This document shows, one piece after another, positions 7,846-39,839 of a stretch of DNA of 41,090 nt. The stretch is taken from IMG/VR virus record IMGVR_UViG_2563366960_000010; one strand, given 5' to 3'. Within the stretch, counting starts at the first letter, position 1. Each line of letters begins with the position of its first letter. Below the pieces are notes generated by a model, which was given only the letters and a program-made list of their open reading frames with translations, had not been told where the DNA came from and did no database searches. Both the position numbers and the translations under genes were made by a program. This DNA is from a virus (lineage: Duplodnaviria; Heunggongvirae; Uroviricota; Caudoviricetes).

Positions 7846-7935
7846 ATTTACATCGCACTCCTCTTGTGCCATAGTAATCGGGCACTGGCAAAATCCAGTG
7901 CCGGGATTGGCGTCCCGGGTTACTAAGTGGCGCAT

Positions 7936-7959: not shown

Positions 7960-8114
7960 TGCGTTAAGCACAGCTATATCCGAATTATGGTGGGCTGGGC
8001 AGGGGTCCGAAAGGACGCCGGTACCACTTAGGCCGGTACGCCAACCTTGTCCAGTTCACCACCAGTAATTGGCGTTGCGGTGGTGATTAAAATCACTAAG
8101 TGGAGATAACCACC

Positions 8115-23795: not shown

Positions 23796-24088
23796 TCCTG
23801 TTCACTGGCCTCTTTGGCCATCTTCAAATACTGTTCAGGGCAATGCGCCATAACGCGCTGAAACAGTTCCAGCGCCAGATTGCGTTGCCCCTCATTAAAT
23901 GCCATTGCCATAGCATCCATCGGAGAGATAGCGGAAAACACCCGGCCTTTCTCCAGCACCGACCAGACAACGCGACGCCCCTGTTCACTGCTCATGACAA
24001 AGCGAATGTCATCAATTTCACGCTGTGCCATGTCACGTTGCTTACGGGCGTTTTCTTCTTTCAGTTGATCGTCTTCGAAATCTGTCAT
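23792..24088 (-). CDS. Small acidic head-assembly-associated protein
   Basis: 98-aa ORF overlapping portal stop and scaffold start. Confidence 0.4.
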   Translation of the reverse strand: MTDFEDDQLKEENARKQRDMAQREIDDIRFVMSSEQGRRVVWSVLEKGRVFSAISPMDAMAMAFNEGQRNLALELFQRVMAHCPEQYLKMAKEASEQE

Positions 24089-25764
24089 TGTGATTGCCCA
24101 CCCTGACCACTAACTGCATTCGCCATAGCTGACAAAACACTCGGATCCGAAGTTTTAGCTTCGCTTAGCGTCTTGGCACCCTGTGCCGCCGCCATCCCCA
24201 TCGCCATCATTTGTTGCTGCTGTTGTTGCTGTGCCCGTTGCTGGCGAGCCTGCTCAACCTGTTCCTGCGGAACAATGACGGTTGGAGACACTCCGGACAT
24301 ATCAGCGAATGCATCGATCGCCTGATCAACGTTGAGTTTGTCGAGAGCTTCTGGTTTCGCTTGCGCAAGTTGACCAATGAAGTTAACCGTGGACGCCAGA
24401 CTGGACAGGCCGATAGACTTCTGCGCCTGAGCCATGACGGAAATGTATTCGACCTTCAGGGGCATGCCTTCCATCGCGTCAGGCGGTGTCGGCAGCATGT
24501 TTTTACGCACCATCATCGAGAAAGCGCGGTCAATGAGAGGATTAAGACATTCGTCGTTCAGACGCTCCAGAACCGGCCCCAACATCAGAAGTTTTTCTTC
24601 TTTCATTTCGATCACCGCTTCAACAGGCATCGAGCGGGTATTGATGTTCTGCAACATCATGAACAGATCGACAAAGTAGGCGCTGTTAATGATTTGACGG
24701 GTGTCCTGAATGTCTGCCACCAAATCTGCTGTACTGGGGTTAACCAGATAAGCAGGCCTGAAACCATCCTGACCAGTAATCTGATCGATATACGTGATGT
24801 CGCCAGGAAGAAGGGAGGCACGCTGATTCTTGAGGGAAGTCGGAGCAACCATCGGCGGATTGGTGGCTTTATCAATCAACTGCGACTTGCGCTTCTGGAG
24901 AAGCTGCAATGCCTTAACAGGTCCAAGCGCCAGCATACCCGGGCATGATGATCCATAAACATCTTCGCCGTTAACTTCCCAGCGCGGAGCCATAATTGGA
25001 AACTCATCGAATCCGGACTCACGCAACAACTTGTCGTTATCGCCACCAACCTCGTAATAAACCGATTTGAATGGCTTGTTCTTGCTATCCAGCTTCGATG
25101 TATCGCGGTCAATGTTCGGGTAAACCGAATGCATCACTTCAATCCACTTCTCGTAGGTGCCGCTTTCCCACATGCTTTTTACGGATTCGCTGACGTTATT
25201 TAGCCCGAACTCCTGAACAAGCTGACGAACAGTCATAGAGAACTTGCGAAAACAGGTGTCCACACTGCCACGAGGTGAGTTAGCCAGGTAGTAACTGCCT
25301 ATCGGGAATGGCATTGTGCGAATGATGTCCTCGTCATCCTCCAGCACCGCCATTGCACCAGTGCTGTATGTGCCGAGGCTTCCGTATAACTGCGGAAGAG
25401 ACTGGTAGAGATTCGACTTATTGAACATATCGTTCATGCGGTTCTGAACTGCCTCAAGCCACAACTTAACAGGGCCATAGTCCATCATTTCAGGATCTGG
25501 CGTAGCCAGGCGAAACCACGGACGGGCGGGGCTTGTTATGCCTGACATCATGCCGCTGGCAAGAGTGCGCGCCGCCATAGTCCCGGTCGAATCAATAATG
25601 CGTGTATTGCGTCGATCGTTACGGTTAACCTCAGAAGTCAGAAAGCGGGAACCACGCGGGTTGATGTAATCACTCAACTCGCGCCAGTGCGGCTCGAACG
25701 ACTGACGCTCGCTTTCAAGTTGTGCGAACTGTTTGTTCAATCGCTCTTTAGTTGTTTCCGCCAT
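24085..25764 (-). CDS. Portal protein (T7 gp8-like head-to-tail connector)
   Basis: 559 aa; Gln-rich C-terminal tail (QQRAQQQQQQQMMAMGMAAAQGA) resembles T7 gp8 C-terminus; SD GGAGTC. Confidence 0.75.
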   Translation of the reverse strand: MAETTKERLNKQFAQLESERQSFEPHWRELSDYINPRGSRFLTSEVNRNDRRNTRIIDSTGTMAARTLASGMMSGITSPARPWFRLATPDPEMMDYGPVKLWLEAVQNRMNDMFNKSNLYQSLPQLYGSLGTYSTGAMAVLEDDEDIIRTMPFPIGSYYLANSPRGSVDTCFRKFSMTVRQLVQEFGLNNVSESVKSMWESGTYEKWIEVMHSVYPNIDRDTSKLDSKNKPFKSVYYEVGGDNDKLLRESGFDEFPIMAPRWEVNGEDVYGSSCPGMLALGPVKALQLLQKRKSQLIDKATNPPMVAPTSLKNQRASLLPGDITYIDQITGQDGFRPAYLVNPSTADLVADIQDTRQIINSAYFVDLFMMLQNINTRSMPVEAVIEMKEEKLLMLGPVLERLNDECLNPLIDRAFSMMVRKNMLPTPPDAMEGMPLKVEYISVMAQAQKSIGLSSLASTVNFIGQLAQAKPEALDKLNVDQAIDAFADMSGVSPTVIVPQEQVEQARQQRAQQQQQQQMMAMGMAAAQGAKTLSEAKTSDPSVLSAMANAVSGQGGQSQ

Positions 25765-25778
25765 TTCAATGACTCCGG

Positions 25779-25985
25779 TTACTGACCAAGCAGCGTTTTA
25801 CCGCTGGTATTAGCGGTTGATGTGTCGCCCTGAGAACCGGTAAGCAGCGTAGAACTACGACCAGCAGCAGCGCGACGGCGACGAGTTTCTTCGTCGCGGG
25901 CATCAACAACGGCGGCATCCTGCTCCTGTGGTGCTGCCTGAACTTCTGGTGTTGCAGGCACTGATGGTGAGCTACCCATGCACAT
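25779..25985 (-). CDS. Small low-complexity protein upstream of portal
   Basis: 68 aa, Ala/Pro/Thr-rich; initiation region GGAGTCATTGAT-ATG nearly identical to that of the portal gene. Confidence 0.4.
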   Translation of the reverse strand: MCMGSSPSVPATPEVQAAPQEQDAAVVDARDEETRRRRAAAGRSSTLLTGSQGDTSTANTSGKTLLGQ

Positions 25986-26075
25986 ATCAATGACTCCGTA
26001 CGCAATTAAATTATTACCAATTTAACCACATATGATTTATTTATCGTAGGTAGTTGACATTTAACGCACAAATTA

Positions 26076-26090
26076 TTACCTTTCAGGTAA
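26076..26090. promoter_or_regulatory. Operator-like palindrome TTACCTTTCAGGTAA upstream of the tRNA island
   Basis: Perfect copy; a TTGACA hexamer lies 17 nt upstream. Confidence 0.5.
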
Positions 26091-26412
26091 CCAAAGAGTT
26101 CATTCCGGTTACTAACCTGACTGGCTTGTCGTTAAATTGAACAGGTGGAGTGAGCTTTTATTTTGAGCAGTACGGCGTATGGCACATGCGCCGATAGCGG
26201 TCTGGATACGTTTAAGGGGCACCCTCCCTTGCTCGGGCAAACGAACCAGGTAGCCGGAATGTGCAAGTCGAGCGGTTTTATTCCGCGCACGTGGATTCAC
26301 CATCCCGGCGATTCGGTGTGACGCCTCGGAAGAGACGAGGGTACAACGATGAGAGCATTTATGGAGCCGCGACAAAGTGTGGCGCCTTAACAGGCTAAGT
26401 GCTCTCAGCGTT

Positions 26413-26489
26413 GTGGCATTAGCTCAGTTGGACAGAGCAACCGCCTTCTAAGCGGTTGGTCGCAGGTTCGAATCCTGCATGCCACGCCA
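26413..26489 (+). tRNA. tRNA-Arg (anticodon UCU), phage-encoded, argU-like
   Basis: 77-nt cloverleaf folded by hand: acceptor GTGGCAT/ATGCCAC, T-arm GCAGG-TTCGAAT-CCTGC, anticodon loop CTTCTAA, discriminator G, encoded CCA; core resembles E. coli argU but stems differ. Confidence 0.85.
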
Positions 26490-26532
26490 GAATCACGCCT
26501 AAGGACCGTGATGCCAGAAGTTCCAGGTGCTT

Positions 26533-26574
26533 GGCGGTGATGGTTTCCCTTGAAGGACTATCACCGCCCTTTTT
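26533..26574 (+). terminator. Intrinsic terminator downstream of the tRNA
   Basis: 9-bp stem GGCGGTGAT / (A)TCACCGCC followed by CTTTTT. Confidence 0.6.
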
Positions 26575-26652
26575 ACAGCAGGACGCCATTGCGATGACTT
26601 CATGCTGTAAACCAGTACAGCCACGGAAGGCATAACTCATTGCTTCCAGTTC

Positions 26653-26677
26653 GCCCGGTTCGTCCGGGCATTTTTTT
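26653..26677 (+). terminator. Second intrinsic terminator immediately upstream of the 110-aa gene SD
   Basis: Stem GCCCGG / CCGGGC followed by T7; SD AAGGTGA and ATG 26690 follow directly. Confidence 0.6.
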
Positions 26678-26689
26678 AAGGTGAAAATC

Positions 26690-27022
26690 ATGAAAGAGAA
26701 GACTGCAGCTGAGCGCTATGCCGCAGCTATCAATGCCGCGATGGCGATTGTAAACCTGCGTGAAGAGATTAAAGATCTCCTTGCAATTATCCATAACAAC
26801 CTGACATGTACAGAGTTGCTTGGCGGTCAGTACAACGGTGAGGCGGTGAAGGAGGCATTTAAAAATGCCGAGGTAGGAATAATTCCAGCAAACTATGTCA
26901 AGGCTGAATGTGTGCTCCTAAAGGCACGAGTGAGTCTGCATGAAGATCCTGGTAATCTCGGTCGAACTGCAATGCGTTACGTGATAGACGAGTCGAATGC
27001 CAAACACAATCTACCGAAATAA
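26690..27022 (+). CDS. Hypothetical 110-aa helical protein in tRNA island (accessory gene)
   Basis: ORF with SD AAGGTGA, opposite in orientation to the flanking late operon; no family recognised. Confidence 0.5.
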   Translation: MKEKTAAERYAAAINAAMAIVNLREEIKDLLAIIHNNLTCTELLGGQYNGEAVKEAFKNAEVGIIPANYVKAECVLLKARVSLHEDPGNLGRTAMRYVIDESNAKHNLPK

Positions 27023-27026
27023 CACC

Positions 27027-27038
27027 GTGACATGTCAC
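27027..27038. repeat. GTGACATGTCAC palindrome copy 2 (14-mer CGTGACATGTCACA)
   Basis: Perfect copy 5 nt after the stop of the 110-aa gene, between convergent genes. Confidence 0.6.
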
Positions 27039-27112
27039 AAACAGACAGCCTATGAGCTGGCTTTGTTTTATCCTCACCAGAGGATATCAACGACATTATC
27101 CCCACCAGCGGA

Positions 27113-28588
27113 TTAAGCATAGGGATCGTAATCTGTGATGGCCTTGCCTTGCTGGTTCTGCTGACCGGGAATTCGCAGACGCTTCGACACAGGGAACGCA
27201 AACGTCAGCAGTAGCGCATCGCCTTTACCAGGAGAACGCCCAAGTCGCTCTTTGATATCTTCCTTCGGTTCGATAACGATTTTACCGTCCACTCGAACTT
27301 TGTACTCTGCTGCCGACAGGTCGTCCGCTGTTTCCTGGTCATCCAGCATGCCGCCCAGCCTCAGCCATGTCTTGCATGAATTGAACATCTCCCCACGCTT
27401 GTTGAGCATCTGCGGGTCAGTAGACGCGCCACCGAACGGAACAAGTTGCCATGTACGACCCCATCCGTCACCGATTGACTTCAGACCGGTTCCGTAACCG
27501 AAGTCGATGAACACCGCGTCAGCCTGATACTGGTCTTCAAAGTCAGCGATACGCTTCGCCATAATCAGATCGTCGGTAGTCTTGTTGCCAGTCCACAGCA
27601 CCTTACTGTGTAGCCCCTGCCGCAGGTATATCACCGCGTCATCAACGCCTGAATATGCCGGGTCAACACCGATTATCACCGGAGCATGCGCCACCTGCGC
27701 AGCGGTTACCACCCGTTTCATTGCCTCATCAGTAAGACCGGTAGGGATAAACTGCAATTCAGATGCATCAGGGAATATGCCGCGCACACGGATTTTAACG
27801 AAGTCGCTGTCTTCCCCGTAGTCATCAACCCATTTCTGCAACTGCTGTTTGTTAGTGCCTTCCACCGTTCGGCTGTCAATCTGCGCAGTTTTCCAGCGGT
27901 GTTTATATTTGCGGAAACATTCGCGGAAACGTCCGGTATTACGCGTCGGGTTTCCGAACGCCACCCAGATAATCTCAGTGTCTTCGTCCGTTAGTGCACC
28001 CTCGGCAACTTCCCACACCAGATCCGCAATGTTCGACGCTTCATCGAATACCACGATGATGCGTTTGCGCTCGTTGTGTAGTCCGGCGAATGCCTCAGTG
28101 TTGTGCTCAGACCAGGGGATTGCGTCAGCTCGCCACCGCTTGTCGTGTCCAGGATCATTGCTGTACATCGCGGTAGCGGTACAGGTAAACCAGTCTTTCG
28201 TGATAGCAAGGTTCGACCACTTGATAATTTCCGGCCAGGTCTTCGTTCGTAGCTGGTTGTCGGTGTTGGCGGTCACCACGACCTTACAATCCTCGCAAGT
28301 GGACATGCCCCAGTTGATCAGCATTGAGATGAATGCGGATTTACCAATACCGTGACCCGAAGCACGTGCCAGCATAAGCGGCTGATAGCGCGTCTCTGGA
28401 TTCTGCAGGTGATCACGTATCTCTCGGAACGCATCAGCCTGCCACTGACGTGGGCCGGTAGCATGTGCCAGTTCAGTCCCCTCTTCCCCCCACGGGAACG
28501 CATAGAGGGCATAGCCAAGCGGATCGTGAGTGAACCCTGCAATATCCTCGATCAACTGCTCTTCAGGAGATAACGCTGTATCTGTCAC
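27113..28588 (-). CDS. terL: Terminase large subunit
   Basis: 491 aa, Walker A-like GHGIGKS, acidic nuclease-domain motifs; 4-nt overlap with upstream small terminase gene. Confidence 0.85.
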   Translation of the reverse strand: MTDTALSPEEQLIEDIAGFTHDPLGYALYAFPWGEEGTELAHATGPRQWQADAFREIRDHLQNPETRYQPLMLARASGHGIGKSAFISMLINWGMSTCEDCKVVVTANTDNQLRTKTWPEIIKWSNLAITKDWFTCTATAMYSNDPGHDKRWRADAIPWSEHNTEAFAGLHNERKRIIVVFDEASNIADLVWEVAEGALTDEDTEIIWVAFGNPTRNTGRFRECFRKYKHRWKTAQIDSRTVEGTNKQQLQKWVDDYGEDSDFVKIRVRGIFPDASELQFIPTGLTDEAMKRVVTAAQVAHAPVIIGVDPAYSGVDDAVIYLRQGLHSKVLWTGNKTTDDLIMAKRIADFEDQYQADAVFIDFGYGTGLKSIGDGWGRTWQLVPFGGASTDPQMLNKRGEMFNSCKTWLRLGGMLDDQETADDLSAAEYKVRVDGKIVIEPKEDIKERLGRSPGKGDALLLTFAFPVSKRLRIPGQQNQQGKAITDYDPYA

Positions 28589-29181
28589 TGATTACCATCC
28601 TGACGTTCTTTGAGTCGCTTCCTGGCTGCTGCTATGCGATCAGCAATTGTCACATTCACATTAACATCCAGACGTTCTTTGAACGCGTTGACATCAACAT
28701 GCTTACCAATCAGCTCAAGGTTCTTCACCTTGTCAGGCCATTTAATTTTTTTGAGGATTGTCTCTATCGAATCCTCGTTCATGTTCATGATGGTCGATGA
28801 CAGATCAAAGCCACTAAGCGTAGTGCGCCAGATTTTCGGCCACTCACGGATTGGTTTAAGGCTCCCATCGTCGTTGAGGATGTCGATCACGTCCATCTGG
28901 TCGATCTCCACCAGGCGCATGAGAACGTAATCAGCACTGACGCGCATTCGTTTGTTGCGCTCCTCCATCAACTCGGCAATCCGTTTTTGAATGCGTTCAT
29001 CGCGCATCATGACACTGGCTTTAACTGCCGCTGTATTTGGGGAGAATCCTGCGTTAATCGCTGCCTGAGTCTGGTTTTCAGGCGTTTTGATGTATGACTG
29101 GCAATAAGCCTCCTGCATTGCTGTTAGTGGCTTAAATTGCGTTGATTTGCGTTTATAGGTTTTAGGTTCAGCAGGCATCAT
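28585..29181 (-). CDS. terS: Terminase small subunit
   Basis: Upstream of and overlapping terL; N-terminal HTH-like segment; start taken at ATG 29181, the track ORF extends to a TTG at 29259. Confidence 0.55.
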   Translation of the reverse strand: MMPAEPKTYKRKSTQFKPLTAMQEAYCQSYIKTPENQTQAAINAGFSPNTAAVKASVMMRDERIQKRIAELMEERNKRMRVSADYVLMRLVEIDQMDVIDILNDDGSLKPIREWPKIWRTTLSGFDLSSTIMNMNEDSIETILKKIKWPDKVKNLELIGKHVDVNAFKERLDVNVNVTIADRIAAARKRLKERQDGNQ

Positions 29182-29291
29182 AACCACCGTGGTAATAGTT
29201 ACCGTTGTGGTAATAGTACCATGCAAAATAAAGCCGCCATAGTTGGCGGCAGTATTCAAAACCCATCAAATTCATCATGCATAATCTACTC

Positions 29292-29303
29292 GTGACATGT
29301 CAC
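29292..29303. repeat. GTGACATGTCAC palindrome copy 3 (14-mer CGTGACATGTCACA)
   Basis: Perfect copy overlapping the stop codon of the 115-aa gene, upstream of terS. Confidence 0.6.
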
Positions 29304-29647
29304 ACTATTAATTTCGTTTCATGCCAGCCTTTAGTCACCCAGCATTGCGAGTCACCATTACACGGGCATGAATTAACTGGAACTCTCTCGCCGCACTTAC
29401 CGCAACATTTTCTGCTGATCGATTTTATACGCCCGCGCACGCGTGCATCATCCTGGCGGATCAGTAACGCGATGTACTCGGCCATTTCATAGGGATCGCG
29501 ACCAGGGCGCCGGGCGGCGCAGTTCCGCGCCAGCATTTCCTGCTCCTGCTTATCCAGCACCAGTTCAATTTTGCGCTCACCGGCGGCGGACTGCCGAGCG
29601 CGCTGCGCGGCTTTGCGTTCTGCGGGGGATTTAGCCACGAATCGCAC
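29300..29647 (-). CDS. Hypothetical protein with basic helical N-terminus and Cys-rich C-terminus (possible DNA-binding regulator)
   Basis: 115 aa, GTG start; C-terminal cluster CCGKCGERVPVNSCPCNGDSQC; last gene before terS. Confidence 0.45.
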   Translation of the reverse strand: MRFVAKSPAERKAAQRARQSAAGERKIELVLDKQEQEMLARNCAARRPGRDPYEMAEYIALLIRQDDARVRGRIKSISRKCCGKCGERVPVNSCPCNGDSQCWVTKGWHETKLIV

Positions 29648-29753
29648 TCCACGCCAGATTGATTAATGACTCCCAGGTAATATAAACCCGGATACCAGCA
29701 GCCAGGCCGAAACCAATCACCATGGCATAAAGCAGAGCGTTGCACTTGTTCAT
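29631..29753 (-). CDS. Small hydrophobic membrane peptide (40 aa)
   Basis: ATG overlaps the DUF551 stop (TGATG), excellent SD AGGAGGTGA; single TM-like segment; below ORF-track cutoff. Confidence 0.5.
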   Translation of the reverse strand: MNKCNALLYAMVIGFGLAAGIRVYITWESLINLAWSAIRG

Positions 29754-30532
29754 CACTTCACCTCCTGCTGCGGTGCTGCTGGCATTTCACGCCAGTGCGT
29801 AACTGAGTGCGGATCCGGATATTCGGTGCCATCATCCCAGCGATTGCCATTCCACATTGCAGACCACATCTCACCGTCTTCATACATGACCATTACCGGA
29901 ATTAACTTATCCGGCATTCTCTCACTACAGCTTATCCAACCATCCGGAGTTACCGGATAGTTGCCAGCCTGAACAGTAGGCATATCAGGACCTTTGCGAA
30001 TCGCCCTGGCAAGATCGATTGGGTCGTCGTACAACCAGTCACCTGTTTGCGGATGATTGGCTTCTGCCAATTGTGCAGCCCACTCCAGGCCGTCTTTGTG
30101 TCCTTGCAGATAGTCCAGCGGTAACTCATCACTATTACTTACAGGTTCGGCCTGAAGCATGGCGGCGCGGCAGGCGTTCCAGCCTCTCACCTCTGCAATA
30201 GCGGCAACAGCATCGACCGCGTACATTTTAAGAGGGTTAGGCATTGGTTTTTCTTCAGGTACTACTGGCACTGGAGGGGCGGCATAAACAGGAATAACGT
30301 CCGATTGCTCTTTATTGCTTTCATCCGTCAAAGCCCAGAATAATTTTCCGGCCGGATGTTTGAAAATATAAGCAACTGGTTCTGCGCTATCAGCTTCGCG
30401 CCGCTTCTGTAGCTCTGCTGCCATTGCTCTCACGACTTCAACTGGTACCCTTGCAGCAAACTCTATGTTGGTGATCAGCTCATTAAGATATTGCTCGCTG
30501 GGATACTGTTTCTTATCGGTTAAAGGGGTCAT
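29753..30532 (-). CDS. DUF551-domain protein
   Basis: 259 aa; C-terminal W..I...ERMP......VTHWREMP pattern typical of DUF551 in lambdoid nin regions. Confidence 0.6.
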   Translation of the reverse strand: MTPLTDKKQYPSEQYLNELITNIEFAARVPVEVVRAMAAELQKRREADSAEPVAYIFKHPAGKLFWALTDESNKEQSDVIPVYAAPPVPVVPEEKPMPNPLKMYAVDAVAAIAEVRGWNACRAAMLQAEPVSNSDELPLDYLQGHKDGLEWAAQLAEANHPQTGDWLYDDPIDLARAIRKGPDMPTVQAGNYPVTPDGWISCSERMPDKLIPVMVMYEDGEMWSAMWNGNRWDDGTEYPDPHSVTHWREMPAAPQQEVK

Positions 30533-30533
30533 A

Positions 30534-31025
30534 TCACTCTCCTTTGATGCGAATGCCAGTGGTACTCATTCTCCTGATTTCCCAGAGCACACGAGGAACA
30601 CCACCGTTTCCGACCGGATCGCGTTTACTCCGCAGGGCGACGCTTGATTCCGCCCAGCTTTTTCTTGGAGGAAGCTCTTTCACACGAACAAAACCAGCTG
30701 CGCGAAGAGATGCTCCTGATTCATCTGCCCGGGTGTACGTAATACAACGTTGATAACCCATAGCTTTTGCTGCCCGCCAGACAGCACCATAAAGCGCGCT
30801 GTTAGCGTTGCGTTCTCCTGTGGTACATGTGCGATTTACTTCAAGCGTTAATCCATCGTCCAAATGTCGTGCAACAGGTCTACCGGCTGTCGCCACACCT
30901 ATCAATTCTCCGGCATCATTTCTCAGACCAATGCTGAATTTATGCCCCACCGGGGGTTTATTGTGTCGGTGATGTCTTGATATAAACGCCTTCGCAACAC
31001 GAAGAGTAACCGGTGAAATTTGCAC
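30534..31025 (-). CDS. Hypothetical protein (nin-region)
   Basis: About 163 aa from GTG 31025 with SD AAGGAGAG (track ORF extends to 31064); contains HRH..PPVGH; family not recognised. Confidence 0.45.
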   Translation of the reverse strand: MQISPVTLRVAKAFISRHHRHNKPPVGHKFSIGLRNDAGELIGVATAGRPVARHLDDGLTLEVNRTCTTGERNANSALYGAVWRAAKAMGYQRCITYTRADESGASLRAAGFVRVKELPPRKSWAESSVALRSKRDPVGNGGVPRVLWEIRRMSTTGIRIKGE

Positions 31026-31027
31026 TC

Positions 31028-31744
31028 TCACTCTCCTTTGATGCCAATGTTTACAGCCTGGCAAGCCTCTTTGAGCACCCAGTCAACAGCGTCTTTCCAT
31101 GCTCCGGTTTCGACTGGCGGGTTCTCACGTTTTACCTGCTCATAAAAACGCACCGCTTTAATCAGTCCTTCCGGTACTACTGGCGATGGCTGTTTAGCTT
31201 CTAAATCAGCAATTCTGTCAACCACGGCATCTACAGCATCTGAAAAGCCGAACAAGTTGCTCCACTCCGGCCTATCCCCGGTTGCTGCAAAATACATATC
31301 AGCTAAAGCAGACTCAGCATGATCACGCTCGCTGATGAGTTGCTCTTCGCTTTTCTCCAGTTCAGCAATACGCTTACTTCCATCCGAGATAACACCTTCG
31401 TAATATTCACGCTGCTCGTTGAGTTTTGATTTTGTCTCCTCAAGTTCAGCAACCAGTTTTCGAAGCCCTTCAATCTCACCATTGCGAGCAATGAGGTCGC
31501 GGCACATGCTTTCGTTCTCATCCAGCAGTGCAAGCACGGTAGCCGGATTAGCCTTGGCAACAAAATCCCGGACTGGCTTACAATCAATCTCCGCAATGGG
31601 TTGATACGATGTGTAGCCATGCTGTCTTGTATAACTACCGTGACGAATAACGAAAAAATCACCATTTATTTTTTTAGCCTGCCACTTATCTTCACCGGCT
31701 TTCTCTGCCGCTTCACGCAGTGCATGATAGTTAATTTTGTTCAC
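31028..31744 (-). CDS. Ead/Ea22-like protein
   Basis: 238 aa; N-terminus MNKINYHALREAAEKAGEDKW resembles Ead/Ea22-like prophage proteins; central coiled coil. Confidence 0.55.
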   Translation of the reverse strand: MNKINYHALREAAEKAGEDKWQAKKINGDFFVIRHGSYTRQHGYTSYQPIAEIDCKPVRDFVAKANPATVLALLDENESMCRDLIARNGEIEGLRKLVAELEETKSKLNEQREYYEGVISDGSKRIAELEKSEEQLISERDHAESALADMYFAATGDRPEWSNLFGFSDAVDAVVDRIADLEAKQPSPVVPEGLIKAVRFYEQVKRENPPVETGAWKDAVDWVLKEACQAVNIGIKGE

Positions 31745-32346
31745 TGGTTGCCTCCTTTGCGAAGCTCTGCGGCAAAGTCAACTAACCACTCGGTCATTTC
31801 AACCTTCCCTACCAGGTCTGAACCAGGAAACATACAGCAATCACTCTGCGCCGCTTTGAAATCCTTATACTCATATTCCTGAGCCACCAGATTTTTTGCA
31901 GCTTCTATAACAGCATCCACCCCCTGCGCCCGTACTTCAGCCAGGAAAGCGTCGGTGGCTTGGGTTTCGATATCGTTAATTTCAGGAAGAATCTCTTCCC
32001 ATGTAGCGATATCGCCATTCAAATGCCATCCGGCAATTCCACTGGAGTTATCCGCAACACTGCGAACGGCTTCAATAGTTTCATGCATTGCCGCATTCTC
32101 CGCTGCCAGCGCCGAAAACTTCTCGTGTGCCAACTTAACAGCCGCATCAGCCTGCTTAATTGACTCAATCGCTTTCTGCTGGTCTTCGGCCAGCGCATTA
32201 GCACGCACCAGTTGCACTTCCAGTTGCGTTGCCAAATCGCTGATCAGCTTTGCCACACTGCGCATATCAACGGCACCACATTCTGCTTTCAGTTCCGAAG
32301 CCATCTCATGCCAGGCGGCAACTAACCCTTTGATATTACTTTCCAT
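31741..32346 (-). CDS. Coiled-coil protein, possibly Ead/Ea22-like
   Basis: 201 aa, helical, overlaps downstream gene start; assignment by position and composition. Confidence 0.4.
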   Translation of the reverse strand: MESNIKGLVAAWHEMASELKAECGAVDMRSVAKLISDLATQLEVQLVRANALAEDQQKAIESIKQADAAVKLAHEKFSALAAENAAMHETIEAVRSVADNSSGIAGWHLNGDIATWEEILPEINDIETQATDAFLAEVRAQGVDAVIEAAKNLVAQEYEYKDFKAAQSDCCMFPGSDLVGKVEMTEWLVDFAAELRKGGNQ

Positions 32347-32407
32347 CTTTACCCTCGCTTATCCACATAACTTATTGATTACATTGATAACTAAAAAGAT
32401 CGTCGAT

Positions 32408-32752
32408 TCAGAACTCTTCGATGTTCCAGCCACCACCTGCTTTCTTTGGTTTAACCGTTACCCCGATGATTCGGAACGGATACTGATCTGCGGCGACTTT
32501 GGTTTTCACCCTGGCGTCGTCGGTCCAGAAACCTTTCACTTCGTGCAGTTCCATCTCTCCGGTGGCGAGCATCACAGCGAAATCGGGCGTATAGAACGTG
32601 TTGTCAGCTAACCGCAGCTTGATACCCTCGAATCGATACCAGGCGATTTCCCCTGCACGTTTACGCTGCTCAAGGTGCTGGCAATACGCAGATTCTGTTT
32701 TGTTCATCTGGCCTGTTTTGAGTCGACCAAGAGCCTGTATCTGTTTTCTCAT
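32408..32752 (-). CDS. DUF1064-like phage protein
   Basis: 114 aa with pattern recalled for DUF1064 proteins; operator palindrome sits immediately upstream. Confidence 0.5.
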   Translation of the reverse strand: MRKQIQALGRLKTGQMNKTESAYCQHLEQRKRAGEIAWYRFEGIKLRLADNTFYTPDFAVMLATGEMELHEVKGFWTDDARVKTKVAADQYPFRIIGVTVKPKKAGGGWNIEEF

Positions 32753-32755
32753 GAT

Positions 32756-32770
32756 TTACCTCTAAGGTAA
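32756..32770. promoter_or_regulatory. Operator-like palindrome TTACCTCTAAGGTAA
   Basis: Perfect half-sites; on the minus strand the AGGTAA half lies 3 nt before the DUF1064 ATG. Confidence 0.55.
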
Positions 32771-32817
32771 TTAAAAACCATATAAGACACGAAATCAATA
32801 GAGTTTAGAATATTTTG

Positions 32818-32832
32818 TTACCTTGTAGGTAA
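32818..32832. promoter_or_regulatory. Operator-like palindrome TTACCTTGTAGGTAA
   Basis: Perfect half-sites 47 bp from the previous copy, in the intergenic region between the P-like and DUF1064 genes. Confidence 0.55.
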
Positions 32833-32869
32833 TTGTTGAGGCGTAAAAAAATGCGCTATCGCGCTGGTA

Positions 32870-33646
32870 TTACTTGATAAATCCTGCCGCCTTTCCCCGC
32901 CTGTATTCCTCCATCAGCCACTGCGCCGGTGTTATTCCCCCAAGGGTGGCGGCGTTAGGCATGCACCCGAAACTTCGCCCTGGTGGATGGTAAACGTCTC
33001 TCCCTGTGTCCGGAGGTGTACTCATGGGCTCTGGCTTTGCCTGTATGCTGATCACCGGATCGGGTATCTGCTGTCCGGAAGCCACCTTTTTCGCCCAATC
33101 ATCGAGCAGCCTGCGCGCGTGTTTCTCAACCTCACTCTCGCTAAGCTGGCGCTGATACATTGCACGACGGGTATCACATACGACCCAGTACATAACCGGA
33201 TGCCGCCACGGGAATCTTTCGGGACCACCAGGATATAAACTTTTTTCCTTGCTGTACCGGTGAAACTCCGCCATCACATCGTCAATGGTGACGCCAAGAA
33301 CCATCTTGCTGTCTTTGCACCACTTGATGAATTGCCCTGGCGACGGCCAGAACGGAGATTCACTGGCGCGGGCGTGGCGCATACCAGCGTTAACCTGTTC
33401 CATTGTAGTGATCCCATTCTCCAGAAACGCAAGCATCCATTGCTTACGGAATTCATTAAGTTTGTTCTGCTCCCTTATGGTCGAAACGCTTGCAGGAAAT
33501 GCAGCCTGTAACTGGACAAATAGTTCATTGAAAATTCTAGCAACCTGCTCCTTTTTGCCATTGCTGTCACGCCGCTCTTCATGCACAGCAACACCATGCT
33601 CACGTAAGCGATCGTACTCATTGAGAAGTTCTGGAGTTGATTTCAT
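32870..33646 (-). CDS. Replication protein, lambda P-like (helicase loader)
   Basis: 258 aa with strong resemblance to lambda P (FPAS, QW.LAF.ENGITTMEQVNAGMR, PSPGQF..WC). Confidence 0.8.
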   Translation of the reverse strand: MKSTPELLNEYDRLREHGVAVHEERRDSNGKKEQVARIFNELFVQLQAAFPASVSTIREQNKLNEFRKQWMLAFLENGITTMEQVNAGMRHARASESPFWPSPGQFIKWCKDSKMVLGVTIDDVMAEFHRYSKEKSLYPGGPERFPWRHPVMYWVVCDTRRAMYQRQLSESEVEKHARRLLDDWAKKVASGQQIPDPVISIQAKPEPMSTPPDTGRDVYHPPGRSFGCMPNAATLGGITPAQWLMEEYRRGKAAGFIK

Positions 33647-34448
33647 CCCACACCCCTTCTATCCAGTCAGTGTTATTCCAGTCAAGCTCATCGCTTTTCC
33701 CGGCATTTTTTGATTTTCCCCTGATATGATTTACGTGCCTGGCGAATTTTTGTTCCCACTGAACCTGCGTGAACACTTTGCCCTCAGCCATCCAGTAATC
33801 CCGGAATGCAGCAAGTTCAGCAGGTGTAAATTCCGGTTCCGGCAGGGCCGTTCCCCACAGCGCAGCACGCCGCCGAAAATCTGGCGACGGTAGCCAGCCA
33901 TCTGTCATCGGAAATTTCCCGATGGGTTCACTCAGGCCATCCAGAAATTCAGGTTCTGCCACCTGCAACGGCGTACTGTTCGCTTCACTGGTCGGAGCAC
34001 CCTCGCGCACGTGCGCTATGTGTGGGGTTTTATATATATCTTCCTCTTCCTCTTCCTCTGGTAACTCCTTTTGTAACGCTGTTGGCGTTACTTTTTGCGT
34101 TACTCGTTTTCTATGCTCTGCCACTCTTCTATTCGTAAGTGCACGTTTTTTCGATGATTCTCCATTATGTCGCTCAAAGTTTGGAAGAATTAGTTTGCCG
34201 TCATGATAAGCAAGCCATCCGACGCTAATGAGGGCGTCAGCAAATCCTGTAATAAAAGCGAGTCTATCAAGTACTCCTTTTGTAACGCTGCCAGCGTTAC
34301 CGTCTATTGTTTGCTGGTCAGCCCATGCCCATATACGAACCAGCTTTCCAAGAACAGCATCTGGATCAATACCCAGAATTTCTGCTATCTGAAAAATTTC
34401 AGGTTTATCAGGAGTGATAACTTCAACCTTAATCCAGCTGCTTGCCAT
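33618..34448 (-). CDS. Replication initiation protein, DUF1376/YdaU-like with DnaT-like C-terminal domain
   Basis: About 276 aa from ATG 34448 with SD GAGGGG; acidic EEEEEED linker; C-terminal segment resembles DnaT-type domains; upstream of P-like gene. Confidence 0.55.
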   Translation of the reverse strand: MASSWIKVEVITPDKPEIFQIAEILGIDPDAVLGKLVRIWAWADQQTIDGNAGSVTKGVLDRLAFITGFADALISVGWLAYHDGKLILPNFERHNGESSKKRALTNRRVAEHRKRVTQKVTPTALQKELPEEEEEEDIYKTPHIAHVREGAPTSEANSTPLQVAEPEFLDGLSEPIGKFPMTDGWLPSPDFRRRAALWGTALPEPEFTPAELAAFRDYWMAEGKVFTQVQWEQKFARHVNHIRGKSKNAGKSDELDWNNTDWIEGVWDEINSRTSQ

Positions 34449-34641
34449 AGGTTTCCCCTCTTGCACTCTTTAGTGCACAAGCAAATTCATTACGATGGCG
34501 GTTGGCGCTATTCATTGCACATTCAACACATGTTCCGTTCAGAACATACCTTTCAGAGAGATGGCCGTGACGGCACCGCTTTCCTGTGAAATAGCGATTT
34601 AACCCGGCTTTTGCGGCCTCCATTCTGGTTACTATCTTCAA
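34429..34641 (-). CDS. Small zinc-finger protein (possible regulator)
   Basis: 70 aa, TTG start with SD AAGGGG; motif C-x-H ... C-x2-C. Confidence 0.4.
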   Translation of the reverse strand: MKIVTRMEAAKAGLNRYFTGKRCRHGHLSERYVLNGTCVECAMNSANRHRNEFACALKSARGETYGKQLD

Positions 34642-34740
34642 TTTTTCCGCCCCTTTTTGTTATTGATATTGGCTATTTTGCACAATTGGAAAATTTGATC
34701 AACCAGATTTGGTTTTTTATTACCCTTAAGGTGCGAATAG

Positions 34741-34767
34741 ATATGAAAAGACCGCCGGATGGCGGTC
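34741..34767 (-). terminator. Terminator-like hairpin downstream of the cro-like gene
   Basis: Minus-strand hairpin GACCGCC / GGCGGTC followed by UUUUCAUAU; short U-run, possibly antitermination-dependent. Confidence 0.4.
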
Positions 34768-34789
34768 TACAGAGGGTTGTGGCTGGATA

Positions 34790-35020
34790 TCATGAGTAGA
34801 AGAAGTATGCCAGTTCTGCTTTTGAGCGCAGCCATTGTCTTGTTTTACAGGCTTTAAAAAGCCCATTCATCAATACTTTACCTGGCATTTTGCGCTTGCC
34901 TGTTAAGTGAGTCTGGATATAGTGACTCGTCGTTCCGGCTTCCTGTGCGAAGGCTTCACGCTCATCCGGAGTAAGTGCAAGCCAGTGCTTTTTGAAATCG
35001 AAATGTCCGTTATCGCTCAT
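34790..35020 (-). CDS. Cro-like HTH DNA-binding protein
   Basis: 76 aa, HTH-like segment, divergent from repressor gene across an operator-containing region; first gene of the replication operon. Confidence 0.55.
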   Translation of the reverse strand: MSDNGHFDFKKHWLALTPDEREAFAQEAGTTSHYIQTHLTGKRKMPGKVLMNGLFKACKTRQWLRSKAELAYFFYS

Positions 35021-35056
35021 AGCTATTGCCTGATATTTATTTCAGATAATAAATAT

Positions 35057-35119
35057 TCACCCATAAGGTAACAAAAATCAAGGATAGTTACCTATGAGGT
35101 GCATTTACCTGTTGGGTAA
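35057..35119. promoter_or_regulatory. Immunity-region operator cluster (three sites) between divergent cro-like and repressor genes
   Basis: TCACCCATAAGGTAA (35057-35071), TTACCTATGAGGTGC (35088-35102), TTACCTGTTGGGTAA (35105-35119); degenerate versions of the 15-bp palindrome. Confidence 0.6.
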
Positions 35120-35174
35120 TATTGCTTTAAATTGAATCATCTACTGATTCATATATGAGGCGATTTTCCAGAAA

Positions 35175-35759
35175 ATGAAAAGTATCCAGGACGTCCGCAG
35201 GCAAAATCTCAACGACTTGATCGACCGTGAATTCAATGGTGTTCAGACGCGGATGGCAGAAAAACTTGGAACTCAGGCAAATCTGGTAAACCGCTGGGCT
35301 CTTGGCAAGAAGGTTATCGGCGACCAGGTTGCACGAAAAATTGAAGCTGCCGCCAATAAACCCCGTAACTGGCTTGATATTGATCGTTCGCTTTCTCAGG
35401 AGGGTTTTCAGCCTGTCGGCCCGAGCGATATAGGTCAGCTGGCGGCTCACAACCTGGAACGCTGGATGAGCGAAAGCCGCGACCTTTCAACACAGGGAAA
35501 ACTTCACCGCGCATCCGGCGTCGCCCAGGTGACAATCAGCCGCCTGTTAAACAATGAGGTCAGCGTTTCCATTTCCACCCTGGAGAATGTTGCATCCGCA
35601 TTCGGGCGTCACGGATATGAACTACTGATTCACCCGCACGACCCTGCGACTATCAACTATGACCGCTCACGCTACGCATTGTTACCCGAAACCGAGAAAG
35701 CAAAGATCGAAAGTTACATTGAATTTGTCATCAACCAGAACGAAAAAAGCAAACAATAA
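35175..35759 (+). CDS. Prophage repressor candidate with tandem XRE-type HTH domains and no S24 peptidase domain
   Basis: 194 aa; two HTH-like segments; no Ser-Lys autocleavage domain recognisable; divergent from the cro-like gene. Confidence 0.6.
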   Translation: MKSIQDVRRQNLNDLIDREFNGVQTRMAEKLGTQANLVNRWALGKKVIGDQVARKIEAAANKPRNWLDIDRSLSQEGFQPVGPSDIGQLAAHNLERWMSESRDLSTQGKLHRASGVAQVTISRLLNNEVSVSISTLENVASAFGRHGYELLIHPHDPATINYDRSRYALLPETEKAKIESYIEFVINQNEKSKQ

Positions 35760-35780
35760 AACTATAGTTTTCAGTAAGTA

Positions 35781-35805
35781 AGCCGCCTCATGGCGGCTTT
35801 TTTAT
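35781..35805 (+). terminator. Intrinsic terminator after the repressor gene
   Basis: Stem AGCCGCC / GGCGGCT followed by TTTTTTATT. Confidence 0.65.
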
Positions 35806-35816
35806 TGCCAGATAGA

Positions 35817-35831
35817 TTACCTTACGGGTAA
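35817..35831. promoter_or_regulatory. Operator-like palindrome TTACCTTACGGGTAA (one mismatch) at the early-left promoter
   Basis: Lies just upstream of TTGACA (35851-35856); GGTAAC half-site repeats at 35888-35907 follow. Confidence 0.5.
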
Positions 35832-35912
35832 TTTTTTTAACTCATATCTATTGACACCAAACCAAATAAGCATAATTATTACCCCAACGGTAACAGACCG
35901 AGGTAACAAGTT

Positions 35913-36065
35913 ATGCAGTGGAAAATCATCAACGGTTGGTACTGCGTTACTGCATGCGGATTCATGAGCTGGAAGTTCCGCACCTTACAGGAAGGCATTA
36001 AGTGGGCTTTCGTCAGCAAAGAAGCTCGCGATGTAGCCAACGATAACGAGATATGGGAGGGCTGA
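35913..36065 (+). CDS. Small Trp/Cys-containing protein (50 aa), first gene of the early-left operon
   Basis: ATG with SD GAGGTAA; below ORF-track cutoff; function unknown. Confidence 0.4.
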   Translation: MQWKIINGWYCVTACGFMSWKFRTLQEGIKWAFVSKEARDVANDNEIWEG

Positions 36066-36067
36066 TA

Positions 36068-36367
36068 ATGAACGTTAATCAGCAGAAAAATCTTCAAAAA
36101 ATCATGCTGGCATTCGACAAGGACTACCGCCTGTCAGAACAGCTATATGACCGACAAGTTGAACTGATTGAGAGCATCCGACTTCATCAACTGTCCTCAA
36201 CTTTCGACGTTGTAACAGGCAAAGGCGTTCGTCAGGAAGTGCTGGAGGCTGCTAAAGACAGCCCTGAGTTCGAAGAACTGATGGATGCCTACCGGCGCGA
36301 GGCAATGGCAATTATAGCGCGCTGGGATCTGGCGGATCAGCTTGATGGGCAGAGGGACGCGGCATGA
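36068..36367 (+). CDS. Hypothetical early protein (99 aa) preceding the recombination genes
   Basis: ATG 36068 with SD GGGAGGG; stop overlaps the exonuclease start (ATGA). Confidence 0.45.
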   Translation: MNVNQQKNLQKIMLAFDKDYRLSEQLYDRQVELIESIRLHQLSSTFDVVTGKGVRQEVLEAAKDSPEFEELMDAYRREAMAIIARWDLADQLDGQRDAA

Positions 36368-37263
36368 TGCGGAACGCTGGAATCATGGATAGAACAAAAT
36401 ACATCGGAGGAAGCGATGTTGCAGGGATTCTTGGAATTAGCCCATGGCGCACCCCGCTTGAGGTTTATCTGGATAAGGTCCAGCCACGTGTCAAACCAGT
36501 AGACCCAAGCAAGCAGAAAGTTTTCACGCGTGGCCAGCGTATGGAGCCATACGTAATAGACCTGCTTTCTGAGGAAACAGGGATGGAAATCGTTCATCGC
36601 GGAAACCGCTATATCCACCGTGATTACGATTTTATTGCAGCTGAGATCGATGCAGAAGCAGCGTCAGGCGAGAACATTGAGATCAAAACAGTTAGTCCGT
36701 TCAAAGCCAAAGAATGGGGAGAAATCCAGACAGATGCAATTCCTGTGCATTACACGGCCCAGGCCATGCACGGGTTGATGGTTACAAACAAACAGGTATG
36801 CGTTTTCGGTGTGCTTATCGGTGGCGACGACTTCCGAATCTATCGGGTTGAGCGTGATGAAGAAACTATCCAGGCGATCTTAGAAAAAGAAATCGCTTTC
36901 TGGGACCGAGTGAAAAATCTTAACCCGCCGGAAGCTACCAGCGTAAGCGATGTATCGCTGATGTTTGAGAAAGATGCCGGGACAAGTATCGAGGCTGACG
37001 GAAAGGCACTCGCACTATTCAACGATCTACGAGACATGAAATCACGCAGAAAATCACTGGAAGAAGAAATAGCTATATCAGAAGAGAAGCTGAAGATGTA
37101 CATGCAAGAGCACTCAGTCCTGACCCTGGACGGAAAGCCGCTCTGCACATGGAAATCTCAGATCAGCAACAGATTCGACCAGAAGCTATTCCAGTCAGTA
37201 CACCCTGAGTTATTCGAAAAATTCAAAACAACAACGACACAACGCGTCTTCAGAATGAAGTAA
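36364..37263 (+). CDS. YqaJ-like viral recombinase exonuclease (lambda Exo-type)
   Basis: 299 aa; N-terminal DRTKYIGGSDVAGILGISPWRTPLEVYLDK matches the YqaJ pattern; directly upstream of recT. Confidence 0.8.
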   Translation: MMRNAGIMDRTKYIGGSDVAGILGISPWRTPLEVYLDKVQPRVKPVDPSKQKVFTRGQRMEPYVIDLLSEETGMEIVHRGNRYIHRDYDFIAAEIDAEAASGENIEIKTVSPFKAKEWGEIQTDAIPVHYTAQAMHGLMVTNKQVCVFGVLIGGDDFRIYRVERDEETIQAILEKEIAFWDRVKNLNPPEATSVSDVSLMFEKDAGTSIEADGKALALFNDLRDMKSRRKSLEEEIAISEEKLKMYMQEHSVLTLDGKPLCTWKSQISNRFDQKLFQSVHPELFEKFKTTTTQRVFRMK

Positions 37264-37272
37264 GGAGAAAAA

Positions 37273-38295: not shown

Positions 38296-38344
38296 CCACC
38301 ACCGCGGCGCCACGTGCGCCGCACTGCAACCAAGAGAGGTATTC

Positions 38345-38593
38345 ATGAAAGGTGCATTAGGTAAGAAAGAACTCCTGGCGGTGGTGCCACTGTCATGGAG
38401 CACTATCGACCGTATGGAGCGCGCAGGGGAATTTCCTAAACGCTGGTATATCACCGATAAACGCTGCGCATGGAACCGTGATGAAGTTGAGCGTTGGCTT
38501 GATGAACGTCAGGCAGCAAGCCCGGCAGAGTTCCAGGGTAAAAAGCCTCCTGTTCAGCAACGTGTATATCGTCCCGTGAGCAACGCTGCATGA
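38345..38593 (+). CDS. AlpA-family phage transcriptional regulator / excisionase-like
   Basis: 82 aa with the AlpA-type pattern (LSWSTIDRMERAGEFPKRWYITDKRCAWNRDEVERWL). Confidence 0.65.
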   Translation: MKGALGKKELLAVVPLSWSTIDRMERAGEFPKRWYITDKRCAWNRDEVERWLDERQAASPAEFQGKKPPVQQRVYRPVSNAA

Positions 38594-38702
38594 GTGCGCT
38601 GCTAAGGCACTGGAGCAAATGGTCAGGATGGTACTTATTCCTGGCCTCTGTTTCAGCATGGCTTTATCTGCTGGCATTAATTTTCAGAGAGGGTTGGATT
38701 AA

Positions 38703-39836: not shown

Positions 39837-39839
39837 ACG

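Follow-up and report, generated by a model that had tools for sequence, protein, structure and literature searches.

Between the portal gene and the gene for the large subunit of terminase (terL) of a phiV10/epsilon15-like (Uetakevirus) genome, analysed here as a window of 41,090 nucleotides (nt; IMG/VR record IMGVR_UViG_2563366960_000010), there is an island at 26006-27112 that carries a gene for a transfer RNA (tRNA), tRNA-Arg(UCU), and upstream of this gene lies a stretch of about 170 nt, called domain A hereafter, which judging from its covariation is a widespread family of structured RNA that has escaped annotation. The tRNA island in itself is ordinary, being already annotated in several GenBank records; it is domain A that is new. 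As to the whole, we give a probability of roughly 0.45 to the idea that the island is an independent, repressor-controlled operon of stable RNAs, comprising the tRNA and a new functional RNA. A preliminary description of this DNA had noticed plus-strand features between terL and portal, inside the minus-strand block, and they indeed lie where it had put them (Table 1), with terL on one side and a gp3-like ORF and portal on the other. It had also called the 300 bp or so upstream of the tRNA hairpin-dense and non-coding, which is right, although it made only a side remark of a stretch whose RNA family is shared with lambdoid and P1-like phages, and it treated as an oddity of one phage an island that is conserved across Uetakevirus, with the tRNA annotated in several records.

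What speaks for an RNA rather than a protein-coding sequence at this place? Thirty homologues of domain A, mutually different by more than about 8%, were aligned over 177 columns, and a structure built by hand, whose 27 pairs make up five helices, the pseudoknot counted among them, was tested on them. Standard pairs fill 93.8% of the cells in the 30 sequences, while in controls with the 3′ partners slid by 1-3 columns only 25-52% of the cells are paired. Changes on both sides of a pair are found in 12 pairs and 64 cells, which none of 500 shuffles matched, and a C-G pair of the pseudoknot becomes A-U in five sequences. It is to be noted that 60 of the 177 columns are invariant, including a strand of 19 nt left unpaired in the structure, and this across phages that otherwise share nothing. 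The pairs also tell the strand: the frequent G-U pairs would turn into A-C mismatches on the other strand, and thus the plus strand is the RNA strand and the minus strand is ruled out as the functional one. A coding reading of 26100-26412 is ruled out too, by such covariation with G-U pairs, by the frame of a local open reading frame (ORF) of 52 amino acids (aa), which is interrupted by stops in most homologues, and by insertions and deletions that do not keep to threes, the homologue lengths showing no preference for multiples of three (10/13/7). The G+C content is 0.54 in 26100-26412 and 0.60 in 26172-26340, against 0.49 for the whole window, and the transcript predicted from 26090 to 26680 folds with -236 kcal/mol compared with -197 +/- 6.6 kcal/mol in shuffles (z = -6.0).

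A covariance model made from the alignment, R1, gives domain A 134.7 bits (26172-26340), which is its only match in the window. At the gathering threshold the tRNA is the sole Rfam family in the island, and Rfam 15, searched with 26090-26412 at E<10, returned only noise-level matches to eukaryotic small nucleolar and long non-coding RNAs on the opposite strand. Over the element in seven related loci it returned, at E<=1, nothing save a match to Methylophilales-1 of 30.3 bits, far below the gathering score of 79.9 (E 0.041), which lies inside module C, described below, of one locus (L015, 6202-6297). The element is described nowhere in the literature searched, in which the ZX5 paper and a preprint on Pas-sRNA are unrelated to it.

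How widely is this RNA distributed? A blastn search with 26006-26412, set to reach distant sequences, returned the expected Uetakevirus relatives, and in addition the part 26172-26412 proved about 82% identical in otherwise unrelated lambdoid phages (cdtI, mEp460, 2H10 and Stx2c phages) and about 79% identical in P1, P7 and P1-like phages, with weaker matches in Klebsiella and Stenotrophomonas siphoviruses. The matched phage records mostly have no feature over the stretch, and otherwise at most a coding sequence (CDS) for a 'hypothetical protein'. Hypothetical CDSs that run opposite to the tRNA/RNA element and overlap it, namely phiV10p04 (locus L001, 2220-2471), mEp460_037 and 036 (L155, 6943-7496) and orf40 of cdtI (L005, 2782-3237), are probably spurious. 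In complete Escherichia coli genomes, a 241-nt query has matches in 1839 of 5426, about a third of them, at 1921 chromosomal and 550 plasmid places, and in none of the 40 records listed does an annotated feature lie under the match. The invariant 19-mer (GGTAGCCGGAATGTGCAAG), scanned for exactly, gave 24 species-representative genome contigs, the true matches among which are all from Enterobacterales, bar one short and probably mis-binned contig of a metagenome-assembled genome, and it is present in at least 120 viral contigs as well.

By their upstream context, 154 loci fall into about 50 of Uetakevirus type, 18 of P1 type and about 83 of lambdoid type. A tRNA-Arg(UCU) lies downstream of domain A in 30 of them, a tRNA-Ile2 ends 9-10 nt upstream of it in the 18 loci of P1 type, in two loci a tRNA-Ile(aat) follows at about 420 nt, and the other 104 are without a bona fide tRNA. 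There is one copy of domain A in 153 of the 154 loci; two tandem copies, on the same strand and about 800 nt apart, are present only in L050 (IMGVR_UViG_2791355294_000005; 3987-4159 and 4781-4963). No module was found on the PR side of mEp460.

In phage P1, domain A lies between trnI and ban and makes up the 5′ part of the ban leader. In cdtI, mEp460, mEp390-type phages and BUCT708, the element immediately follows the repressor gene, with which it shares the strand, and in the lambdoids it begins 25-60 nt past a consensus-like PL with operators. The promoter of cdtI, a near-consensus TTGACA-16-CATAAT with operators, is about 30 nt upstream of the element, which thus appears to be the first thing transcribed from PL, and in Kosakonia prophages some 7 nt separate the hairpin of helix P1 from TTGACA-N17-TAAACT upstream of it. 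The records of these lambdoids show no N-like gene, which is a statement on annotation only as no systematic search for N was made, and in cdtI the product of the first early-left ORF does not begin with an arginine-rich stretch. The element is gone from CPS-53 of E. coli K-12, a relative of the early-left operon of SfV type, and K-12 transcriptomes are therefore uninformative on it.

Within Uetakevirus the island is part of a well-kept locus. About 80% of the region 25700-27400 aligns at 98% identity with vB_EcoP_ZX5, HEMP4, phiV10 and the O157 typing phages 9 and 10, the gene order of the flanks is identical in the phiV10 and epsilon15 records, and the phiV10 record has a rho-independent terminator annotated at the place homologous to the hairpin at 27030-27075. 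Phages of E. coli, Salmonella, Klebsiella, Citrobacter and Enterobacter keep the island, and every relative of Uetakevirus type shows a common frame: a promoter with a palindrome, then RNA modules, then a constant 3′ part consisting of hairpin H, terminator T1, two hairpins and terminator T2, and finally a Shine-Dalgarno sequence (SD) with an ORF.

The tRNA of the island is, as far as its sequence tells, a genuine member of RF00005 in everything that could be tested. ARAGORN calls it as the only tRNA of the whole window (tRNA-Arg(tct), 26413-26489, plus strand), and RF00005 matches it over the full length of the model with 73.3 bits at a gathering score of 29, so the argU-like tRNA-Arg(UCU) of the preliminary description is real. 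Its further remark, that the core resembles argU while the stems are altered, is equally sound. Compared with the argU sequence fetched for K-12, 64 of the 77 bases are identical; the D arm differs in one loop base, the anticodon loop CUUCUAA and the T arm are identical, and what else differs lies in the acceptor and anticodon stems, where each change is compensated. Arginine identity is carried by A20, C35 and the discriminator G73, and the GGA of the D-loop including A20 and the G before CCA (G73) are kept as in argU. The tRNA-Arg is annotated in typing phages 9 and 10, in SPN9TCW and in Klebsiella phage ST512-KPC3phi13.3. The outer acceptor pairs GUGG/CCAC are those of the ends of module C and not of argU, and this fit with the frame of module C suggests that the tRNA was grafted into the cassette.

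A role of this tRNA in codon supply is plausible and conventional. The long ORFs of the window, with 11,761 codons, use AGA at 7.6 and AGG at 3.9 per 1000, while the host uses AGA at about 2 per 1000. The AGA codons are located in early, accessory and tail genes, 16 of them in the tailspike ORF (3394-6513), and a codon count finds none in the capsid, portal and terL genes; the rationale of a rare AGA codon, offered earlier, is thus good for the early and tail genes and not for the adjoining head genes. Phage-borne tRNA-Arg(UCU) genes are known from Stx phages as argN and argO, and like other argU-like tRNAs of phages, the present one is carried by a temperate phage of enterobacteria in which AGA is more frequent than in host genes. 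The tRNAs of the P1 ban operon are likewise in a repressor-controlled early operon, which also holds domain A. The difference from known phage tRNA genes is that the tRNA here sits within a fixed RNA cassette, in which many relatives have module C, not a tRNA, in its place.

The cassette consists of several modules besides domain A. The basal helix of module B covaries (GAGAGCA/UGCUCUC, AAGAGCA/UGCUCUU, GAGAGUA/UACUCUC, GAUGGCU/AGUCAUC), and its 3′ strand ends with ...GCGUU|GU, overlapping the first two bases of the tRNA in a fixed register. Many module B 3′ strands hold the boxA core UGCUCUUU in base-paired form, and the window has UGCUCUCAG in the stem; module B also seems to resemble the 'GGUAAGAGCGCACC' segment of RNase P. 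At the position of the leader hairpin, the Klebsiella relatives have a full module B. Module C, which replaces the tRNA in most relatives, is 90-190 nt long and closed by GUUGUGG...CCACAAC, often with an acceptor-like stem, hairpins like a D arm and a T arm, and a tail of ACCA or ACCC, and neither ARAGORN nor Rfam calls it a tRNA or transfer-messenger RNA. T-arm-like hairpins (GGUUCGAUUCC) recur in the variable parts of B and C in L003, L019, L021, L123 and L127. As for hairpin H, its loop CCUAAGG (26498-26504) is self-complementary, is kept as CCUNAGG in relatives, and could mediate dimerization by kissing loops.

That two consecutive terminators follow the tRNA was rightly noted before. Both have the form of an intrinsic terminator, a G+C-rich hairpin with a U-run, and 25700-27400 holds four terminator-like sites against 1.5 +/- 1.0 in shuffles. 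A hairpin homologous to T1 (GGCGGU...ACCGCC followed by CUUUUUACA) comes after the element in cdtI, mEp460 and ST64B, and the stem of T2, which is followed by an A and seven U, covaries in relatives (GCCCGG/CCGGGC to GCCCAC/GUGGGC). Directly before T2, the 13-nt CAUUGCUUCCAGU (26638-26650) is conserved; we take it to be identical with a part of the core of the small RNA RyhB, though the Rfam model of RyhB matches only weakly (22 bits, E 0.25). Possibly, what lies between T1 and T2 is a separate small RNA of the Hfq type. The arrangement had been likened to an attenuator, and this holds as a description only: neither the minimum free energy (MFE) fold nor the centroid fold offers an alternative antiterminator pairing for T1 or T2, the competing ACAAC/GUUGU pairings that are present do not involve them, and in L108 and L123 the unit just ends at T2, with the next gene having its own operator.

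How would such an operon be regulated? TTGACA-N17-TACCTT with an overlapping palindrome ATTACC-N5-GGTAA is found in all loci of Uetakevirus type, and the window has 13 copies of TTACC-N5-GGTAA where 0.55 are expected. Pairs of the palindrome stand on both sides of an ORF with an HTH_3 domain (35175-35759), a repressor candidate, others precede an isrK/C4/Bro-N anti-repressor module (7738-8825), and the epsilon15 site homologous to the palindrome of the island is annotated 'repressor, lysogeny'. Since the island promoter overlaps an operator that recurs in this way, the unit is probably silent in the lysogen and turned on early in the lytic cycle. The dispersed operators look like the layout of P1. 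In the anti-repressor module, isrK (67.7 bits) and C4 antisense RNA (66 bits) of Rfam lie in tandem (7882-8066, plus strand), just upstream of the Bro-N anti-repressor ORF (8100-8825), which is the arrangement of the P1/P7-type immI module, and cdtI, a carrier of domain A, has an isrK/C4 pair too (L005, 277-465).

Behind T2 there is a place for accessory genes. The ORF here starts 13 nt past the U-run of T2, and the SD abuts this U-run just as the preliminary description had it. Its 110-aa protein belongs to PHROG 27507 (3.5e-75), which has no assigned function, matches nothing in Pfam or PADLOC, and has homologues in 15 clusters, all unnamed, among 5.8 billion proteins; the AlphaFold2 model is unreliable, with a predicted local distance difference test score (pLDDT) of 48.8. 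In relatives, the ORF right after T2 comes from at least 10 unrelated families, such as Phage_gp49_66 (phiV10, epsilon15), an HNH endonuclease, a membrane/coiled-coil protein of 292 aa, and, in Klebsiella phage ST512-KPC3phi13.3 (L008, 3185-3706), a Tad2-like protein with the anti-Thoeris domain PF11195 (4e-26). By this comparison the slot is a site of swappable accessory genes. A promoter scan of 25700-27400 detected no promoter-like site, and in particular no sigma-70-like one between T1 and the ORF. In morons and other hot spots, too, unrelated small genes, here Tad2-like or HNH endonuclease genes, replace one another at a fixed site; a classical moron, however, has its own promoter, whereas this ORF has no detectable one and follows a strong terminator at 13 nt. 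T1/T2 with the ORF is therefore rejected as a classical moron in spite of its variable gene and its terminator.

Table 1. Positions on the window of the RNA modules, signals and neighbouring genes discussed in the text.
Feature	Position	Strand	Remarks
Domain A	26172-26340	+	conserved pseudoknotted RNA, ~170 nt; covariation, covariance model
Domain A, helix P1	26173-26193	+	9-bp hairpin
Domain A, helix P2	26202-26205 with 26246-26249	+
Domain A, invariant strand	26249-26267	+	GGUAGCCGGAAUGUGCAAG, 19 nt, unpaired
Domain A, helix P4	26292-26296 with 26302-26306	+	loop UCACC joins the pseudoknot
Domain A, pseudoknot	26298-26301 with 26315-26318	+	CACC with GGUG
Domain A, helix P5	26324-26340	+	hairpin, loop GAAGAGA
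Module B	26343-26414	+	long irregular hairpin, ACAACGAUGAGAGCA...UGCUCUCAGCGUUGU; MFE -35.6 kcal/mol
tRNA-Arg	26413-26489	+	anticodon UCU, CCA encoded; ARAGORN and Rfam RF00005
Island promoter (putative use)	26054-26090	+	TTGACA 26054-26059, 17-nt spacer, TACCTT 26077-26082; sequence and conservation
Operator palindrome	26076-26090		TTACCTTTCAGGTAA; overlaps the island promoter
Leader hairpin	26094-26159	+	degenerate copy of module B type; MFE -21.9 kcal/mol
Hairpin H	26492-26512	+	AUCACG-CCUAAGGAC-CGUGAU; in all Uetakevirus-type loci, after tRNA or module C
Terminator T1	26533-26577 (hairpin 26533-26568)	+	14-bp stem, CCCUUGA-type loop, -22.0 kcal/mol, then CUUUUUACA
Two conserved hairpins between T1 and T2	26575-26608, 26625-26647	+
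Terminator T2	26653-26677 (hairpin 26653-26669)	+	GCCCGG-UUCGU-CCGGGC, 6 G-C pairs, -11.6 kcal/mol, then AUUUUUUU
SD and 110-aa ORF	26678-27022	+	SD AAGGTG 26678-26683, ATG 26690, stop 27020-27022
Hairpin between the convergent 110-aa ORF and terL	27030-27075		terminator-like on the - strand, T-rich on the + strand
Portal	24085-25764	-
gp3-like ORF	25779-25985	-	68 aa
terL	27113-28588	-
TTACC-N5-GGTAA palindromes	6618, 7738, 7831, 8898, 26076, 29181, 29199, 32756, 32818, 35057, 35105, 35817, 35879

Taking these observations together, we imagine the life of the unit as follows. After infection or induction, the repressor would leave the overlapping operator and RNA polymerase would start at TTGACA-N17-TACCTT, making an untranslated and highly structured precursor of about 590 nt, in which the leader hairpin, domain A, hairpin B, the tRNA-Arg(UCU), three small hairpins and two intrinsic terminators follow one another. 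Host tRNA-processing enzymes would excise the tRNA, RNase P cutting at G26413 and other activities trimming the 3′ side, and the same cut would free an A-B RNA with a defined 3′ end. The tRNA might then supplement the scarce argU tRNA of the host for the AGA-rich early and tail genes, while domain A would be functional in its own right, with its invariant unpaired strands probably binding a conserved host component early in lytic growth, as it is to such a partner that unpaired strands so conserved point. T1 and T2 would be the genuine end of the RNA gene, and the ORF behind T2, having no detectable promoter, would be translated only where transcription has leaked past T1 and T2.

An argument for such an independent operon is that domain A travels between unrelated phages together with module B, a tRNA or tRNA-like module, and T1, in Uetakevirus, in the PL leader of SfV/mEp460/cdtI/mEp390-type lambdoids, and in P1-like plasmids, and therefore resembles an autonomous gene cassette with its own terminator. 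It is in line with this that the unit stops at T2 in L108 and L123, with a new operator before the next gene, and that each genome has a single copy and the PR side none. Several facts weigh on the other side. Phage P1 has domain A alone, directly before ban, without B, C and T1, and A could serve the downstream mRNA there. In the lambdoids, PL is separated from the entire early-left operon by the cassette with its terminators, an awkward place for a plain RNA gene and one that suits a cis-acting antiterminator better. The -10 element of the island promoter is weak (3/6), and the generic scan missed this promoter. From the epsilon15 reference genome most of A is missing, together with the whole of B and the tRNA, so that the RNA is presumably dispensable for growth; the deletion junction (NC_004775, L007 1790-1875 compared with L003 2861-3300) is in UUCCCUUGAUGCU, which is present in the P2 loop of A and in the T1 loop, and the loss thus looks like a recombinational deletion. 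Finally, domain A is not obligatory in the cassette: in ST64B (L157, NC_004313; 27238-28052, minus strand), there are 815 nt between cI (sb38) and sb37, in which PL is followed by a 5′ domain of about 300 nt that bears no relation to A, and further on come modules B and C, T1 and a second hairpin. B-C-T1 is thus a cassette of wider occurrence than domain A, and among other 5′ domains there may be more families that have gone unrecognized.

What might domain A do? A tentative possibility is that A with B and C makes up a new class of phage RNA acting on the host at the onset of lytic growth. Such an RNA may be an antiterminator made of RNA only, doing the job of N in the many lambdoid prophages without N, or else it may be a decoy or inhibitor against a host factor or a defence system, which would fit with its first-expressed position, with its tRNA or tRNA-like neighbours, and with cargo of the anti-Thoeris type.

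The antiterminator idea can also be taken in its strict form, in which domain A, possibly with B, acts in cis as a processive antiterminator like HK022 put or the boxA type of rrn, and in this form we consider it rather unlikely. The nascent RNA would stay on its polymerase and let it pass T1, T2 and Rho-dependent sites, and so allow the cargo ORF here, the early-left operon in the N-less lambdoids and ban in P1 to be expressed. The lambdoids do invite this view, having the element soon after PL, followed by a T1-like hairpin, a second long hairpin and then the first early-left ORF, with no N-like gene annotated; the closeness of the first hairpin to the promoter in Kosakonia and the contact of T2 with the SD of a promoterless ORF in the window agree with it. 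The boxA core in many copies of module B, and the P5 loop GAAGAGA, which we take to be similar to the boxB loop of lambda nutL, recall a nut site. The string here is, however, base-paired inside a stem and not conserved in the window (UGCUCUCAG). That the mEp phages were isolated as Nus-dependent (PMC11893012) may be counted in favour as well.

The likeness to put is one of position, a structured nascent RNA just downstream of a repressor-controlled early promoter in lambdoids lacking N, before terminators (PMC9378689). There is no relation in sequence: neither an nhmmer profile of domain A, run on HK022 24000-40751, which is assumed to span PL and PR although these are unannotated there, nor the covariance model R1, run on HK022, gave a match. 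The architecture differs too, put being an L/R pair with two stems in about 70 nt (PMC9378689) and domain A being single, with five helices and a pseudoknot in about 170 nt, one copy per genome and none downstream of PR. Domain A is thus rejected as a member of the put family on sequence, architecture and copy number, and by analogy it may still work like put despite the lack of kinship. Against antitermination in cis there are, in addition, T1 moving along with the cassette between phage types, L108 and L123 having nothing past T2 that requires read-through, and the consequence that lasting antitermination would send polymerase antisense into terL.

Are A and B perhaps without a function of their own? 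As a structured leader, they might guard the precursor from Rho and RNases and help the tRNA or tRNA-like module to fold or RNase P to cut it, and in P1 and the lambdoids they might give a stable 5′ end to a processed downstream mRNA. The element is always in untranslated stretches beside tRNAs or tRNA-like modules (30 tRNA-Arg and 18 tRNA-Ile2 loci), the 3′ strand of B meets the 5′ end of the tRNA in a fixed register, and the ban leader of P1 has the element as its 5′ part, immediately behind trnI. A hairpin would suffice for such a purpose, yet 60 of the 177 columns are invariant, including the unpaired 19-nt strand, the pseudoknot and helices are kept by compensatory change, and 104 of the 154 loci have no bona fide tRNA nearby, for which reasons we doubt that the leader is passive.

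It is very improbable that domain A is an aptamer of the riboswitch type, sensing a ligand or a tRNA and tuning read-through of T1 and T2 by a switch between ACAAC/GUUGU at the base of B and GUUGUGG/CCACAAC of the closing stem of module C. Conserved unpaired nucleotides, a pseudoknot and a multi-helix core are typical of aptamers, and GUUGU can pair with either ACAAC strand in all module C cassettes, but the terminators are 190-310 nt downstream with an entire tRNA between, no structure was found that joins A to T1 or T2, P1 carries A without any terminator, and no riboswitch of Rfam matches. Least credible, and indeed contradicted, is the notion that the island is a captured piece of host argU or a decaying remnant without an expressed product, since, in spite of the D arm, anticodon loop and T arm being identical or nearly so to argU, the flanks bear no similarity to those of the K-12 argU locus, which rules out capture of that locus, every stem change is compensated, the island is kept in phages of five host genera, and domain A evolves under purifying, structure-preserving selection.

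Outside the phage antiterminators, two other kinds of RNA deserve comparison. GOLLD and ROOL, which Weinberg and colleagues are said to have reported in 2009 and 2017, are reportedly large and ornate RNAs of prophages, with no function assigned and often near tRNA genes; the likeness to domain A, as a structured prophage RNA linked to tRNAs, is one of kind only, as the present element is modular and shorter, and its hosts are Enterobacterales instead of mainly Firmicutes and environmental bacteria. With no model matching even at E<10, domain A is rejected as GOLLD, ROOL or another Rfam family. The operons of ribosomal RNA and tRNA are similar in having a long untranslated structured transcript, in which tRNA processing would set the ends of the neighbouring RNA; they differ in boxA, as the boxA-like string here is base-paired and not conserved in the window, and the present unit is not known to depend on Nus factors.

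Three groups of temperate phages that are unrelated to each other, the epsilon15/phiV10-like phages, the SfV/mEp460/cdtI-like lambdoids and the P1-like plasmids, have domain A as the element transcribed first in early operons under repressor control. Were it to act on transcription, lambdoids without N would owe to it their passage through the terminators that follow PL; were it to act in trans, phages would have in it a widespread RNA effector in well-studied hosts, open to standard genetics. In either case the family is worth adding to RNA databases, so that annotation pipelines would cease to call ORFs across domain A.

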